In this document: piece after piece, positions 5,516 through 37,465 of the stretch | How positions within the stretch are numbered: position 1 is the stretch's first letter | How the letters are laid out: every line of letters starts with the position of its first letter | Origin: Candidatus Woesearchaeota archaeon | GTDB taxonomy: Archaea; Nanobdellota; Nanobdellia; Woesearchaeales; JABIAG01 | Direction of reading: 5' to 3' | Assembly (NCBI GenBank): GCA_018653365.1 | Contig: JABIAG010000002.1 | Location: forward strand, 32,001 to 96,000 | DNA length: 64,000 bases | Translations under genes and position numbers: made by a program | The notes under the pieces: model-generated | Told to the model about the DNA's origin: nothing | The model's input: only the letters and a program-made list of their open reading frames with translations | Databases searched by the model: none

Positions 5516-5588
5516 TTTTCATAATAAAAACTTTTAAATACCCATTGATTCAATACTATATTAATGTTTTGTAAAAAGAGGTGTATTG

Positions 5589-7856
5589 ATGCCTGAGGAT
5601 AAGGAATATAGTTACGAGGTAGTGCGCGAAGGTTCTGATGTAATTCTTAAAGTGAACTATGAGAATGTACTGAGTCCGCCCTCTATAGAGGAGGATCCGG
5701 TTTGTATGTCTCGTACTATTAATATGCTTTTAGAAGCGGGTAAAGTTACAAAACTTATCTTTCAACAGAAACGTGATTTTGAGTATGATTTTGATCAGGT
5801 TCAAATTATTCAAGAGATCGCTTCATTATATAACAAGTTTGTTAAAAATCGAGATTTGATGACGTTTCTACTTGCAAAAGATAATCCTGCTTCAAAATCT
5901 AGACAGGCACTTTTACAAAAGTTTGTTTATAGTATAATGAAAAAGGATCCTTTGGGTGCTTATGTTTTAATTAGAAGGGAGAGAAGAGAACAGGAACACA
6001 TTCTTGAATCTGACCCAAATAATCTTGATAAAGAAACTATTCAAGAGTTTGCTAGAGTTTTGGATCATATGCTTGATGAGTTTGAAGCAACAGCATTAAT
6101 TAAACTTGCTCAACCTTATGTTATGGGATATAAGTTGGGTGATCGTTCAATTTATAAGAAACTTTTCCATCCTACAATTAAACCTGATTTTATGTTTACT
6201 AAGCTTATGGCTTCATATCCTCAGGAAGGGGAGGTTTTAGCTAATTATTCAATTGCTAATACGGATGTTACTATTTTTGAACTTCCTGGTTCTGTTAATT
6301 ACTTGTATCATATTGTTCCTCCTGAGTTTAAACTTACTGAAGCAAAGTATGATTTATTAGACACTGCTAGATCTATAATGGCAGAACACAAACCTACTCG
6401 TTCCGAGTTTGTTAATCCTGCATTGATGCGTGAAGTTTTCTATAATGTTGGTCATGACTTAATTGAGGAGTTAGCAAACAAGCAGGATGTAAGACTTAGA
6501 TTAAAAGAGATCGATGAACTGGCAGAAATCTTAGTTCGATACACTGTCGGTTTTGGGTTAATAGAAATCTTACTTAATGATCCTCAAATTCAAGATATCT
6601 CTATCAATTCTCCAATGGGTAATATTTCAATGTTTATTGTTCATGGCGAGTTTGGAGATTGTAAAACTAATATTATTCCTACTGCTTCTGATGGAGAGTC
6701 CTGGGCTACTAAACTGAGATTGATGTCTGGTCGTCCTTTAGATGAAGCTAACCCTATTCTTGATACTGAACTCGAACTACCAACAGTTAGGGCGAGAATT
6801 GCAGTTATTTCTCCACCGTTAAACCCGTCAGGGTTAGCGTACTCTTGGCGTCGTCACAGAATTAAACCCTGGACGTTACCATTATTTATAAAATATAAAA
6901 TGATGAATCCCTTGGCAGCAGGTTTGATGTCTTTTATTGTTGATGGTGCACGAACTATTCTTGTTGCCGGAACACGTTCCGCTGGTAAGACCTCTTTGTT
7001 GGGAAGTTTGATGGTAGAACTTATGAGGCGGACTAGAATTATTACTGTTGAGGATACTTTAGAACTTCCTTCAGATGCATTAAGAAAGTTTGGTTATAAT
7101 ATTCAACCCTTAAAAGTTGCTGCAGCTCTTTCTAAGGGGTCTAGTGAAGTTCCTGCAGATGAAGGAATTCGGTCTACTTTAAGGTTAGGCGATTCGGCTT
7201 TGTTTGTTGGTGAAGTTCGTTCCACTGAGGCCAAGGCTTTGTACGAAGCTATGAGGGTTGGAGCACTAGCAAATGTTGTTGCAGGTACAATTCACGCAGA
7301 CTCACCGTATGGTATTTATGATAGGGTTGTTAATGATTTAGGCGTTCCTAAAACCTCTTTTAAAGCTACTGATATTGCACTTGTTGCTAATCCAATTAGA
7401 AGTCCGGATGGAATTCATCGTTGGAGAAGGGTCACACAAATTACTGAAGTTAGAAAATTCTGGGAAGAGGATCCTTTGAGAGAAAACGGATTTGCTGATT
7501 TAATGAAGTATGACGCAACAACTGACGAATTACAAGAATCTGAGGTTTTAATTAATGGTGAATCTGAAATTCTTAAGGCAATTGCAGGTAATGTTAAGGA
7601 ATGGGCAGGTAATTGGGATGCAGTGTGGGATAATGTTTTGTTAAGAACTAAGATTAAAGAAAGAGTTGTCAAGGCCGCTGCACAAACGGGAGATGACAAC
7701 TTATTAGAAGCGGGTTTTGTTATTGTTGCAAATGATGAATTTCATAAGATTTCAGAAAGGGTTCGTGAGGAGGTTGGAGCTCTGGATTCAGATCGAATTT
7801 ATTTTGAGTGGGAGTCTTGGTTAAAAACTGCGTTAACTAAAAAGAAATTTTTATAA
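5589..7856 (+). CDS. Type IV pilus/type II secretion assembly ATPase (TadA/FlaI/VirB11 family)
   Basis: Walker A GTRSAGKTS, TVEDTLEL, VGEVR, GTIHADS; SD-like GAGGTG upstream of ATG 5589. Confidence 0.92.
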   Translation: MPEDKEYSYEVVREGSDVILKVNYENVLSPPSIEEDPVCMSRTINMLLEAGKVTKLIFQQKRDFEYDFDQVQIIQEIASLYNKFVKNRDLMTFLLAKDNPASKSRQALLQKFVYSIMKKDPLGAYVLIRRERREQEHILESDPNNLDKETIQEFARVLDHMLDEFEATALIKLAQPYVMGYKLGDRSIYKKLFHPTIKPDFMFTKLMASYPQEGEVLANYSIANTDVTIFELPGSVNYLYHIVPPEFKLTEAKYDLLDTARSIMAEHKPTRSEFVNPALMREVFYNVGHDLIEELANKQDVRLRLKEIDELAEILVRYTVGFGLIEILLNDPQIQDISINSPMGNISMFIVHGEFGDCKTNIIPTASDGESWATKLRLMSGRPLDEANPILDTELELPTVRARIAVISPPLNPSGLAYSWRRHRIKPWTLPLFIKYKMMNPLAAGLMSFIVDGARTILVAGTRSAGKTSLLGSLMVELMRRTRIITVEDTLELPSDALRKFGYNIQPLKVAAALSKGSSEVPADEGIRSTLRLGDSALFVGEVRSTEAKALYEAMRVGALANVVAGTIHADSPYGIYDRVVNDLGVPKTSFKATDIALVANPIRSPDGIHRWRRVTQITEVRKFWEEDPLRENGFADLMKYDATTDELQESEVLINGESEILKAIAGNVKEWAGNWDAVWDNVLLRTKIKERVVKAAAQTGDDNLLEAGFVIVANDEFHKISERVREEVGALDSDRIYFEWESWLKTALTKKKFL

Positions 7857-7857
7857 A

Positions 7858-10101
7858 ATGAATGGAAGTATAAAGGAGTTAAAAAAGAGGTATAGAGATG
7901 AGCTTGAGAAAAAGCTAACCGTTTCTTCTGATGATTTAAAACCTATTAAGACTAAAGAGTATGTTCAGTTTAAAAAAGAGTTAAAACCCAAGTCTGTTGA
8001 CTGGTATGAAAAATTATGTAACTCTTTTGAACACATTTTCAAATTTACTCCCTCTCCTAAAGCTAGACAAAAATTATTAGAACAAATTAACATAGCTCAT
8101 ATGAATGTTACGCCCGAGGGAGTTTACACCCTTTCATATTTACTTCCTCTCTCTTTACTTTTGCTTTCTGTTGTTGGTTTTGCGCTTGTTCCAATGTTGA
8201 TTGGGGGCAATATTTCCATGTTTTTCTTGGGGATGGCCATGATTGTTAGTTTATTATTGATCGTGCCTTTGCAAAAATATCCTTCTTATTTGGCCACGGC
8301 TTGGCGGTTGAAATCTTCTAATCAGATGGTTTTGTGTGTGTTTTATCTTGTTACTTATATGCGTCAATCCTCTAATCTTGAACGAGCAATAGAGTTTGCA
8401 GGCGATCATTTGGATCCTCCTCTTTCTTTGGATCTTAAAAAAATATTGTGGAACGTTGAAAACAGAACATTTAGCTCTATGACTGATGCTCTGGATGAGT
8501 ATCTAATAAGTTGGAAGCGATTTAGTGATGAATTCATTGATGCTATTCATTTAATTCAGTCCTCTTTATTGGAGGGGAATGAGAGTAGACGGTTGGCACT
8601 TCTTGACAAGTCTTTAGATGTTATTCTTGAAGGCACTTATGAAAAAATGTTGCATTATGCTCAAAATCTTAAGAACCCAATTACAACCTTGCACATGTTG
8701 GGTGTTATTCTACCTGTTTTAGGTCTAGTTATCCTGCCTTTGGCGGTTAGTTTTATGGAGGGTTTGCAGTGGTATCATCTTGCAGTATTTTATAATTTTT
8801 TATTGCCAATTGTTGTATTCTTTCTTTCTAAGAGTATTCTTTCGACGCGTCCTGCTGGTTATGGTGATTCAGATATTAGTGAGCACATTAAGGGTTTGAA
8901 GAAATATAAGAAAGTGGGTATTTTTGGTAAGAAGATTAGAATGTCTCCTGCATTAATTGGGGGCATGATTTTTGTTGTTCTTCTTTTAATTGGTTTAATT
9001 CCAATATTTGTTTTTCCTGCAGGTGTTGAAGATACGTGTTGGGATTTCAAAAATGAAGGCTTCTTTTGTAATGATATTGAGGAAGAGGCCTGTCGTATTA
9101 CTTATTGTGCTTGGCAGTATAAGCTAGTTGAAGGGCAATTTTCTCAGTTAATTCTTAATCCTAATTCTTTTGATGTTCGTGATAAGTTAGATCGTGGTGC
9201 GGACGTTATTGGACCTTTTGGGGTCATTGCAGCACTGATGAGTTTACTAATTCCAATTGGTGCAGGTGTTGGTTTGGGTTATTATTATAAGATGCGTTCC
9301 ACTCGTGTTCTAAAAGTTAGAAAAGAAACAAAGATGATGGAGAAAGAGTTCTCTACTGCACTATTTCAGTTAGGTAATCGGTTGGGTGATGGTCTGCCTG
9401 CAGAACTCGCAATTCCTCGGGTTGCTACAATTATGGAGGGTAGTATCTCTGGTAATTTTTTCTCTCAAGTAAGTATGAACATGCAGAAGTTGGGAATGGG
9501 TTTGGCACCTGCTATTTTTGATAAAGAACATGGTGCAATTAATTATTTCCCTTCTAAAATTATTGAATCCGCTATGAAAGTTTTGGTAGAGTCGGTTAAG
9601 AAAGGTCCTTTGGTGGCTGCTCAGGCAGTTAATAACATTGCACGGTATATTAAAGAGATACATCGTGTTAATGAACGTTTAAAGGATTTGCTTGCAGATA
9701 TTATCTCCTCTATGCGTCAGCAAATTAATTTCCTTGCACCTATGATTTCAGGTGTTGTTGTGGGTATCACTTCTATGATTACGTTTATTCTTGGTAGGTT
9801 AAAGACTCAGGCTGCTGGTTTTGATGTTGGTGATGCTTCCTCTTTCCTTACTATGATGGGTGAAGGAATTCCTACGTATTTCTTTCAGTTAGTTGTTGGT
9901 TTGTATGTTGTTGAGATAGTTTTCATCTTGTCTATTATGGCAAATTCTATTGAGAATGGTAATGATAAGTTGGGTGAACGTGCCACTCTTGGTAAGAACT
10001 TACTTAAGTCCACTATGTTATATGCAACTATTGCTTTCTTTGTAATGATGGCCTTCCAGTTAATGGCTGGTGAGATAATTAGTAAAACTGGTTTGATTTA
10101 A
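7858..10101 (+). CDS. Type IV pilus platform membrane protein (T2SSF/TadC/FlaJ-like, two repeats)
   Basis: Multi-TM; directly follows the ATPase; two T2SSF-like soluble domains. Confidence 0.8.
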   Translation: MNGSIKELKKRYRDELEKKLTVSSDDLKPIKTKEYVQFKKELKPKSVDWYEKLCNSFEHIFKFTPSPKARQKLLEQINIAHMNVTPEGVYTLSYLLPLSLLLLSVVGFALVPMLIGGNISMFFLGMAMIVSLLLIVPLQKYPSYLATAWRLKSSNQMVLCVFYLVTYMRQSSNLERAIEFAGDHLDPPLSLDLKKILWNVENRTFSSMTDALDEYLISWKRFSDEFIDAIHLIQSSLLEGNESRRLALLDKSLDVILEGTYEKMLHYAQNLKNPITTLHMLGVILPVLGLVILPLAVSFMEGLQWYHLAVFYNFLLPIVVFFLSKSILSTRPAGYGDSDISEHIKGLKKYKKVGIFGKKIRMSPALIGGMIFVVLLLIGLIPIFVFPAGVEDTCWDFKNEGFFCNDIEEEACRITYCAWQYKLVEGQFSQLILNPNSFDVRDKLDRGADVIGPFGVIAALMSLLIPIGAGVGLGYYYKMRSTRVLKVRKETKMMEKEFSTALFQLGNRLGDGLPAELAIPRVATIMEGSISGNFFSQVSMNMQKLGMGLAPAIFDKEHGAINYFPSKIIESAMKVLVESVKKGPLVAAQAVNNIARYIKEIHRVNERLKDLLADIISSMRQQINFLAPMISGVVVGITSMITFILGRLKTQAAGFDVGDASSFLTMMGEGIPTYFFQLVVGLYVVEIVFILSIMANSIENGNDKLGERATLGKNLLKSTMLYATIAFFVMMAFQLMAGEIISKTGLI

Positions 10102-10120: not shown

Positions 10121-10197
10121 TGGGGCAACCGGGATTTATGTCATCACTTCGTTCTGGACAAATCCCTATTGTTTGTAAACCAATTTAGGATAAGAAA
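10121..10197 (-). repeat. 17-bp duplication of the tRNA-Phe 3' end carried on a GAACGAAGTGA-capped hairpin
   Basis: 10121-10137 is identical to 10198-10214; hairpin 10131-10166 with loop motif at 10144-10154. Confidence 0.85.
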
Positions 10198-10302
10198 TGG
10201 GGCAACCGGGATTTGAACCCGGGACACCTGCGTCTTCAGCGCAGCGCTCTCCCAGTCTGAGCTATTGTTCTGGTTTCAAAAGCCGTAACTTCCAAAATCC
10301 CC
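10198..10302 (-). tRNA. tRNA-Phe(GAA) with a 31-nt intron at 4/5 (10268-10298)
   Basis: Removing 10268-10298 restores the acceptor stem GGGGCAA/TTGCCCC-A; canonical D, anticodon (CT GAA GA) and T arms; bulge-helix geometry fits. Confidence 0.9.
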
Positions 10303-10430
10303 AGTAAAACCCAGACAAGGTTAGGATTTATCATATATTTAAATGCTTTTCGTTTTTTTTCACTGGACATTTTTGTGCTGCACTGGACAAACGCTGCCCC
10401 AAAGTTTATAAAAAAACTTGATTCTGTTTT

Positions 10431-10573
10431 AAAAGAGCCTCGCGCAAAACTCTTTACAAAAACTTTTCCCTCAAAGAGGTCGGAACTGGTGTTCCTAAAA
10501 GTTTTTTGTGAGTTTCGCTGGTTGAGTCTCTTTTTTTGCCAAATCCAAAGTTTTGTGTAGTGAAAACTTTGGA
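10431..10573. repeat. Large branched inverted repeat (10431-10534) plus an 11-bp hairpin (10544-10573) upstream of the endonuclease gene
   Basis: AAAAGAGCCTC/GAGTCTCTTTT, GCAAAACTC/GAGTTTCGC, ACAAAAACTTTT/AAAAGTTTTTTGT, inner CCTC/GAGG and GGAAC/GTTCC; TCCAAAGTTTT/AAAACTTTGGA. Confidence 0.75.
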
Positions 10574-10583
10574 GGTTAAGAAA

Positions 10584-11330
10584 ATGAATAAAAAACCACT
10601 TTTAGTATTTGATGATGTATTAAGAACATACAAGTCTGAATATCACGGAAGAAAAGCATTTGAGAGTTACATGTCTTGGTTTCCGTTAATAGTTTCCCCT
10701 TGTCTTGCGGGAATTGTTGCAGATTTAATGTGTGATGGACATTTACAAGGTAAAAAATGGAGGTTTGATTACACTTCCAATTCTATTGAAGAGTTAGAGA
10801 GATTCAACAGAACGATTCATTCTTTATTCAAAGTTAAAGGTAAAGTAAGAAAGTGTACAACCAATAAATATGAAACTTTTAATCTAGGTGTAAATAACAG
10901 TCCTTTAGCAAGAGTGTTGAAACTTCTAGAAGTCCCTGCAGGAGCCAAGGTTTTATCTAGTTTTTCCATTCCTGATTGGATTCTTGCTGATAAGACTCTG
11001 TTTGGTAGATTCATAAATCGTTTAGTTAGTTGTGAAGGGTCTGTTGATGTAAAAAATAAATGTATTGACATTAGAATGTCAAAGTCTGAAGACTTGATTG
11101 TTGACGGTTTGTCATTCTTCAAAGATATTCAAAATTACTTGTGGAATTATTTTGAGATTAAAACAACAAACCCTTTTTTAGATCGAAGTTTCAATTTAAG
11201 AAAAGATGGGATAAAAACAAAGACGATCCGACTAAAAATAAAAAGGAAAGAATCTCTTATAACTTTCAACAAATTCATAGGTATTGATGATAAAATTAAG
11301 AATAAAAAATTAAAAAGAATAATTGGTTAA
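10584..11330 (+). CDS. Free-standing two-motif LAGLIDADG homing endonuclease (intein/DOD-like)
   Basis: LAGIVADLMCDGH and FINRLVSCEGSV motifs, IPDWIL linker; GGAGG upstream of ATG 10584; no intein splicing ends. Confidence 0.8.
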   Translation: MNKKPLLVFDDVLRTYKSEYHGRKAFESYMSWFPLIVSPCLAGIVADLMCDGHLQGKKWRFDYTSNSIEELERFNRTIHSLFKVKGKVRKCTTNKYETFNLGVNNSPLARVLKLLEVPAGAKVLSSFSIPDWILADKTLFGRFINRLVSCEGSVDVKNKCIDIRMSKSEDLIVDGLSFFKDIQNYLWNYFEIKTTNPFLDRSFNLRKDGIKTKTIRLKIKRKESLITFNKFIGIDDKIKNKKLKRIIG

Positions 11331-11711
11331 TTATTCTACAACTTCTTCTTCAACTGAACTTTCAGGTGTTTCTTCAGCTTCATCAGGTGATTCAGTTGGT
11401 GCAGCTTCTGTTGCGGGTGTATCTCCACTTACAACTTCTAACTTACCAAACTTACCTGTGGATAATTGTAATTCGCCTTGCCATTCTCCAACCCAGCCGT
11501 TCTCAATATGGATTTTGTCTCCAACGTTTACTTTGTCTACGTCTTCATTCCATAGTGTGAGTGTTACTGTTCCTGTTGAGTCTTTTACTGTTGCATTACA
11601 TACTTTGCCTGATTTTCCGAACTTTTCGAACTCTCTTGCTTCTGCTTTTTCTGCAACTTCTACTACTACATCTACATTTCCTGTTTTTGCTTTTAGATCT
11701 TTTATTTCCAT
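11331..11711 (-). CDS. Single OB-fold ssDNA-binding protein (SSB/RPA) with an acidic tail
   Basis: KDSTGTVTLTLWNE, IENGWVGEWQGELQL; acidic C-terminus. Confidence 0.85.
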   Translation of the reverse strand: MEIKDLKAKTGNVDVVVEVAEKAEAREFEKFGKSGKVCNATVKDSTGTVTLTLWNEDVDKVNVGDKIHIENGWVGEWQGELQLSTGKFGKLEVVSGDTPATEAAPTESPDEAEETPESSVEEEVVE

Positions 11712-37155: not shown

Positions 37156-37283
37156 ATTAAACAATAAATAAGAATTAGTTAAAAAGGTTGTCCTCTGTTT
37201 GTTTTACACTGTTGGAGATTTCGCCCTGTCTCTGCCCAGAAGATTAGAAAGCATTATAAAATAATTCTTATTCGTTAATTCAT

Positions 37284-37402
37284 GCGCCTGTAGCTCAGCC
37301 TGGATACCGGAAAATCTTGATTTTACTGGATTGACCCGGTAGGGTAAATAGAGTGGCACCCTCCTAAGGTGAAGGTCCGGGGTTCAAATCCTCGCAGGCG
37401 CG
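37284..37402 (+). tRNA. tRNA-Arg(CCT) with a 44-nt D-loop intron (best fit 19/20; 37304-37347)
   Basis: GCGCCTG/CAGGCGC-G; BHB with central GCCU/GGGU, bulges GGA and AAA, intron helix UACCGG/CCGGUA. Confidence 0.9.
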
Positions 37403-37465
37403 TAACGGAGTGAAGCAACTGCGTAGGTGTTGGGAACGTAAGTGACCACATCTCGCAGGCGCGTA
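37391..37465 (+). repeat. 14-bp duplication of the tRNA-Arg 3' end flanking a 47-bp insert with a GAACGTAAGTGA-capped hairpin
   Basis: CTCGCAGGCGCGTA at 37391-37404 and 37452-37465. Confidence 0.85.

Follow-up and report, generated by a model that had tools for sequence, protein, structure and literature searches.

In certain tRNAs of the Thermoproteales, acceptor-stem introns have been published at position 3/4 (PMC4090602, citing Sugahara et al. 2008). As described in that source, these are short introns without an open reading frame (ORF), recognized through a bulge-helix-bulge (BHB)-type motif and processed by the splicing endonuclease EndA and a ligase; their geometry also demands that bases of the 5' leader take part in the central helix. 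In the split and permuted tRNAs of Nanoarchaeum equitans, Caldivirga, Thermofilum and Cyanidioschyzon, the BHB is formed with leader sequence from beyond the mature tRNA (PMC4033280, PMC3218864). In Methanopyrus kandleri, tRNA termini are trimmed before intron removal (PMC3695527). Collaborative homing, in which a free-standing endonuclease gene lies beside an ORF-less intron, is known from T3/T7-like phages, a cyanophage and ICP1 (PMC10448857). For Asgard archaea, no general route of arrival has been given for ORF-less tRNA introns, and homing endonucleases are unmentioned there (bioRxiv 10.64898/2026.10.13.758758). Our literature search, which covered few subscription journals, turned up no publication about acceptor-stem introns in Woesearchaeota or a 4/5 family in DPANN archaea, about leader/D-arm guides, their covariation or a promoter shift, or about archaeal tRNA genes with a free-standing LAGLIDADG gene next to them.

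The tRNA-Phe(GAA) gene of the woesearchaeal genome studied here (G000) very probably is a working gene that contains a protein-spliced intron at position 4/5, whose splice motif is built in part from the 5' leader and which is spliced before the 5' end is trimmed. With the Thermoproteales introns it shares the short ORF-less acceptor-stem insert, the BHB-type motif and the pairing of EndA with a ligase. As those 3/4 introns already need the leader in the central helix, the principle is not categorically new. The original prediction cites a Pyrobaculum tRNA-Glu as a 3/4 example, where PMC4090602 gives only certain Thermoproteales tRNAs. The differences from them lie in the DPANN host with its single alpha-subunit EndA and in the intron position, which is mostly 4/5 and also 3/4 and 5/6; set against the Thermoproteales introns as far as PMC4090602 describes them, the present ones are further distinguished by a covarying leader/D-arm helix, a shifted promoter and a linked endonuclease gene. 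Unlike split and permuted tRNAs, the gene has its parts in normal order in a single transcript, its leader pairs with an exon (the D-arm), and the leader is proposed to be removed by RNase P after splicing instead of by EndA. As in phage collaborative homing, a free-standing endonuclease gene adjoins an intron in an essential gene, and both are absent from the sister allele. In contrast to the phage systems, this is a chromosomal archaeal tRNA gene with a 31-nt intron predicted to be protein-spliced and a putative intein-type LAGLIDADG endonuclease, and promoter and leader would need to travel too. The steps of tRNA maturation would be the same as in Methanopyrus, but their order at the 5' end must be reversed if our reading of the locus is correct.

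The window, i.e. the whole stretch of DNA analyzed, comprises 64,000 nt of the G000 genome (1.09 Mb, 34% GC, 95% complete, three contigs, from marine samples). The following features belong to the locus; G001 and G002 are related genomes, the latter from the same genus.

10121 to 10137, minus strand: second copy of the 17-nt 3' end of tRNA-Phe, 60 nt downstream of the gene; absent in G002
10198 to 10267, minus strand: tRNA-Phe(GAA) exon 2, C5 to A73 (ARAGORN and Rfam)
10268 to 10298, minus strand: 31-nt intron at position 4/5 with a 10-bp inner hairpin; absent in G001 and G002
10273 to 10270, minus strand: 3' strand of the central helix inside the intron, assigned by pairing
10299 to 10302, minus strand: tRNA-Phe exon 1 (G1-G4); restores 7/7 acceptor pairs and matches the intronless G002 gene
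10303 to 10316, minus strand: 5' leader; bases -2 and -1 finish the central helix, bases -14 to -6 form the outer helix with tRNA bases 17 to 9
10336 to 10343, minus strand: TATA box, 41 nt upstream of G1, by comparison with other tRNA genes and with relatives
10361 to 10389, no strand assigned: two copies of a 9-nt box (10361-10369 and 10381-10389), from sequence recurrence
10536 to 11330, plus strand: free-standing two-motif LAGLIDADG endonuclease gene (weak PF14528 match, E 1e-3; structure model)
11331 to 11711, minus strand: ssb, single-stranded DNA-binding protein gene, host flank

ARAGORN and Rfam place the tRNA at 10198-10271, with a wrong 5' end (10271) and with acceptor pairs 1, 3 and 4 mismatched; the acceptor stem thus fails in the unspliced gene, as stated in the original prediction. 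Its claim that removal of 31 nt repairs the stem also holds. G1-G4 are located at 10302-10299, followed by the insert (10298-10268) and exon 2 (10267-10198), and joining the exons gives seven of seven Watson-Crick acceptor pairs at a junction that allows no sliding. The spliced 74-nt product, whose CCA end is not encoded in the gene, folds into a cloverleaf of -32.2 kcal/mol and is identical at 74/74 positions to the uninterrupted tRNA-Phe of G002, so that intron removal yields a canonical tRNA equal to the intronless ortholog. By every sequence feature except the strict form of its motif, the insert is an EndA-spliced tRNA intron. Contigs from the DNA runs X7, X8 and X5 (the last of which may be the source of the assembly) span the intron and show it unchanged, so it is no assembly error. 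A search of G000 revealed no second tRNA-Phe(GAA) gene, in line with single-copy status, no separate tRNA-Phe 5' half and no second copy of the intron, and thus no sign of copying between tRNA genes. ARAGORN in relaxed mode with long introns gave mostly noise; tRNAscan-SE 2.0, which lengthens candidates by 60 nt in search of terminal introns (PMC8450103), may be able to detect the intron.

In the proposed splice motif, C(-2) U(-1) G1 G2 pair with intron bases 10273-10270. Each of the two bulges has 3 nt and is predicted to be cut behind its second base; both points agree with the original prediction. The same 4-bp central helix and cut positions recur across the related loci with varied pair types, although up to one mismatch was tolerated in the helix when introns were called. 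The motif as a whole had been described as more perfect than it is: it is a relaxed BHB in which A6 faces A(-3) and U8 faces base -5 as U·U. The A·A mismatch at 6/-3, in the outer helix next to the 3' bulge, makes it BHL-like, whereas the strict hBHBh' motif, with pairs closing both bulges on each side, is present in some relatives, e.g. at locus L035. The intron hairpin does have 10 bp, but four of them are G·U and its folding alone is not significant (z -1.1); the UACG tetraloop, to which attention had been drawn, is closed by U·G and not conserved in relatives. The 5' region of the precursor folds better than 200 of 200 shuffled sequences (z -3.6); neither the whole precursor nor the intron hairpin alone does so. 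Random G000 flank restored the acceptor stem in 6.5% of trials, stem and central helix in 0.4%, and both together with an in-register outer helix in 7 of 200,000.

Genes for EndA, RtcB, RNase P RNA and Rpp29 are all present in G000. EndA is a single 177-aa alpha subunit (contig C1:14506-15036; L031:1474-2007), and neither a protein search nor a search with the N-terminal family revealed a second subunit in this genome. The protein, aligned with its M. jannaschii counterpart, lacks the insert of N. equitans and ARMAN-2 and shows no obvious specificity-loop insert. As a loop-less alpha4 EndA is reported to require a strict BHB (PMC5829648), the A·A site found here is in real tension with that rule. 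Among the canonical introns of G000, as assigned automatically, 8 of 13 have mismatched central helices, so its EndA probably tolerates relaxed sites. Several further introns of G000 are non-canonical, which, in combination with a loop-less EndA, is likewise at odds with the published rule.

The leader at 10316-10308 complements tRNA bases 9-17 with 9 bp, two of them G·U, in exactly the register that the BHB requires; this central element of the original prediction was confirmed. Compared to the other tRNA genes of G000, in which the TATA box starts at -29 to -34, that of tRNA-Phe is located at -41, about 10 nt farther upstream, which implies a leader about 10 nt longer than usual. Standard TATA spacing, combined with the TATA positions of this genome, predicts a start near -11, +/-3, which makes G000 borderline for the full leader helix. 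A start near 10316, as suggested earlier, is allowed by the spacing, but at the extreme edge of the range. In equilibrium folding, a 14-nt leader forms the motif with a probability of 0.7-0.9; with a leader of 12 or 10 nt a competing fold wins and the motif is absent, and at 8 nt or less G1-C72 pairing reaches 0.45-0.86. Co-transcriptional folding should favour the motif at the 5' end.

The uninterrupted gene of G002 is not alone in the family, as G001 and two other members are also without the 4/5 intron. Introns homologous to that of G000 occur in other families, and intron stems of separate families resemble each other more than shuffled hairpins do (0.43 vs 0.28). When metagenome and genome collections were searched for tRNA-Phe with a broken 3:70 pair as the sole requirement, 15 hits were obtained, all of which regained 7/7 stems once a BHB-flanked insert was removed. 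With order-wide searches added, 22 distinct loci were obtained, carrying the intron at 4/5 (18 loci), 3/4 (three) or 5/6 (one). An acceptor-stem intron is present in at least 10 of 401 sampled genomes, from nine families; these counts are lower bounds, since genes that have extra D-arm introns or G at position 3 escape the pattern searches. At nine loci (L051-L054, L061, L062, L067, L079 and L081), tRNA-Phe contains further introns in the D-loop, at 37/38 or in the T-loop, in varied combinations. At locus L057 (G134), the first 15 nt of the tRNA occur a second time about 100 nt upstream of an intact tRNA-Phe, resembling a 5'-end integration scar.

The LAGLIDADG gene beside the intron, which goes unmentioned in the original prediction, is oriented divergently from tRNA-Phe. 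It encodes 264 aa from the first TTG, and its true start is probably later. Its structure model (pLDDT 92.5) matches the folds of intein endonucleases, PI-PfuI and I-DmoI, with WhiA also among the matches. Gene and intron differ together between G000 and G002: 1063 bp (11330-10268, from the ssb stop codon to the intron end), comprising the LAGLIDADG gene, promoter, leader and intron together, stand in place of 21 bp in G002, and the sequence to either side is about 83% identical. In G002, ssb ends 17 nt before tRNA-Phe. Of 17 informative intron loci, 9 have a close homolog of the endonuclease gene next to them, compared with none of 33 intronless ones. From the protein side, the subfamily was found in 7 of 401 genomes; all six with a visible tRNA-Phe carry the 4/5 intron, and in the seventh the contig ends first. 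The 9-nt box precedes most free-standing LAGLIDADG genes of G000 and is present at six related intron loci. Thus, a free-standing endonuclease gene with an intact active site adjoins an ORF-less intron, both are absent from intronless alleles, and their distribution is patchy, as in collaborative homing. Gain or loss of the intron together with the neighbouring gene suggests a route by which tRNA introns spread. In such a scheme, LAGLIDADG gene, promoter, leader, exon 1 and intron would move as one cassette; the enzyme would cut the 5' end of an intronless tRNA-Phe, and the intron would shield the host copy. Collaborative homing would explain the joint appearance of intron, guide leader and promoter, and we consider it evenly balanced whether the cassette moves in this way.

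An explanation that competes with the homing scheme only, and which we place slightly below an even chance, is that intron and endonuclease gene are co-located by history, with many losses producing the patchiness, and that ssb or the spacer is the target of the nuclease, unless the latter has become a domesticated regulator like WhiA. The match to the WhiA fold would fit this explanation, as would the eight of 17 intron loci without the endonuclease and a subfamily tree that is nearly a star. Furthermore, G000 shares bases -3 to -1 with the intronless G002, and no other intron locus has C(-2); together, these observations fit a loss in G002 or an origin in two steps. On the other hand, no intronless tRNA-Phe adjoins the subfamily (0/33, and 0/6 from the protein side), and both acidic active-site residues, D67 and E167, are invariant. 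The spacer varies between genomes, so that the tRNA 5' end would be the obvious conserved target. Intron-bearing and intronless genomes are interspersed on the ssb tree. G000 groups as sister of the intronless G002, and the intronless G001 and G003 branch outside this pair with good support; a single gain is more parsimonious here than three losses.

Six further free-standing LAGLIDADG genes are encoded in G000 (C2:81058-81840, C2:126606-127457, C2:78189-79166, C1:751114-751746, C1:458208-458834 and C1:717945-719057). Five of them abut tRNA genes (Leu, Arg, Gly/Val, Asn and Leu-like), two overlapping the tRNA, and most of these tRNA genes are visibly intron-bearing. With nuclease genes next to five other tRNA genes of G000, cassette homing would be a general intron route. 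We propose only tentatively, and with some doubt, that the cassette homes into tRNA-Phe 5' ends across the Woesearchaeales and represents a general route for ORF-less archaeal tRNA introns; the intron would then protect its host gene against cutting by the nuclease, and thanks to the leader it could be removed again.

A second alternative concerns the leader. The intron could be real and the leader/D-arm pairing dispensable. EndA would then need no more than the central helix and the inner hairpin, and the outer helix would be left over from the cassette's origin or would only accelerate folding. Some types of EndA cleave hBH-type sites in which one helix is missing (PMC4090602, PMC4033280), and the transcription start in G000 may leave only part of the helix transcribed. 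At locus L049, a 4/5 intron occurs with a leader that has no D-arm complement and an outer helix of only 4 bp; an endonuclease ORF in the same direction reaches to about 18 nt from the tRNA at this locus. Against dispensability stands the comparison of the loci, none of which had been chosen for leader pairing. For the duplex of the leader with bases 6-21, the median energy is -16.0 kcal/mol across the 22 intron loci, compared with -4.8 across 34 loci without an acceptor-stem intron. A 5-bp leader helix on D-arm bases 11-15 is found in 20 of the 22, spread over many families, and in none of the 34, and its register tracks the intron position to within one base. Base 16 and its leader partner form A-U in 5/6 and C-G in 13/16 cases (p 2e-4), U opposite C16 is never observed among intron loci, and the leader/D-arm covariation check of the original prediction was thereby passed; p-values from these leader comparisons are overstated, as the loci are kin and do not represent independent samples. 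Because MAFFT misaligned leader and intron by one base in three rows, the pair counts are based on anchored positions. The promoter is shifted as well, with the TATA box starting at -41 to -46 in most intron loci vs -32 to -35 in intronless ones, and leader bases -2 and -1 are needed regardless. We therefore regard dispensable pairing as rather unlikely; the comparative evidence points to a leader selected as a structural guide and to a promoter shifted to supply it.

That the gene is a pseudogene broken by an insertion, with the functional tRNA-Phe hidden in an assembly gap, is very improbable. The assembly is 95% complete in three contigs, and the 3'-end duplication downstream indicates that mobile DNA has acted at the locus. 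However, exon 2 is identical at 70/70 positions to the G002 gene where the flanks show about 83% identity, and the motif recurs with covariation in other families. In edited organellar tRNAs, mismatches are limited to the first pairs, and the full-length tRNA called by ARAGORN and Rfam at 10198-10271, mismatched only at pairs 1, 3 and 4, could be read as such a case, but trimming of the transcript at 10271 and rewriting of its first four bases by a Thg1-like 3'-5' polymerase is the least probable explanation, as no Thg1-family gene (PF04446) was found in G000 and the exact missing bases (10302-10299) are encoded 31 nt upstream in BHB geometry, here and at 21 other loci. HARP also gave no match in G000. 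A split (trans-spliced) or permuted tRNA was rejected, as the exons are colinear, 31 nt apart, and no second 5' half was found.

The 17-nt copy downstream of tRNA-Phe is probably unrelated to the intron. It was rejected as an att site of the cassette, because it is found at the opposite end of the tRNA from the cassette and because such repeats also occur behind unrelated tRNAs. Similar 3'-end duplications with a shared spacer motif follow tRNA-Lys(CTT) and tRNA-Leu(GAG), and the motif also occurs downstream of tRNA-Ser(CGA) (sites of duplication or motif at C1:350246, C1:230079 and C3:96029) and in a 33-nt tandem repeat at C1:592184-592264. Duplication and spacer motif (window 10121-10197) possibly represent a tiny mobile element or its remnant. 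On the same side, window positions 5586-10101 (plus strand) encode a secretion/pilus-type ATPase (PF00437) together with a protein of 747 aa that belongs to no known family; both recur downstream of tRNA-Phe as conserved neighbours in many relatives. A tRNA-Arg(CCT) with a D-loop intron is located at window positions 37283-37403 (plus strand); relaxed ARAGORN calls it Leu(TAA), and the default run misses it. Between a TATA box and tRNA-Ile(GAT), about 80 nt at C1:748630-748720 (minus strand) are possibly structured.

Our preferred reading of the tRNA-Phe gene, leader-dependent splicing by EndA, starts from boundaries, helices, promoter positions and enzyme genes that can be read from the DNA and adds a predicted start, cleavage and order of steps. 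The promoter, set back by about 10 nt, would yield a leader of roughly 11-14 nt, which would pair with the 5' strand of the D-arm, opening the arm, and provide half of the central helix, in which G1-G2 would be held. A relaxed BHB would form and keep G1-G4 off the 3' acceptor strand. EndA would cut in both bulges, after G4 and before C5, and RtcB would join G4 to C5. The cloverleaf would then displace the leader, which RNase P would remove. As the energy of the spliced cloverleaf (-32.2 kcal/mol) is level with that of the best leader-containing fold (-32.5), tertiary folding can release the leader for RNase P. The unspliced RNA has no acceptor stem for RNase P, and early trimming would destroy the splice motif; from geometry and folding, we infer that splicing must precede 5' trimming. 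The intron can probably be removed only while the leader pairs with the tRNA.

Overall, these results would turn acceptor-stem introns from an 'extreme case' of the Thermoproteales into a recurring family of DPANN archaea (at least 10/401 genomes, nine families). The filled and empty alleles of G000 and G002 form a pair suited for a direct test of homing. Splicing that depends on the leader and comes first would reverse the order of trimming before splicing described for Methanopyrus.
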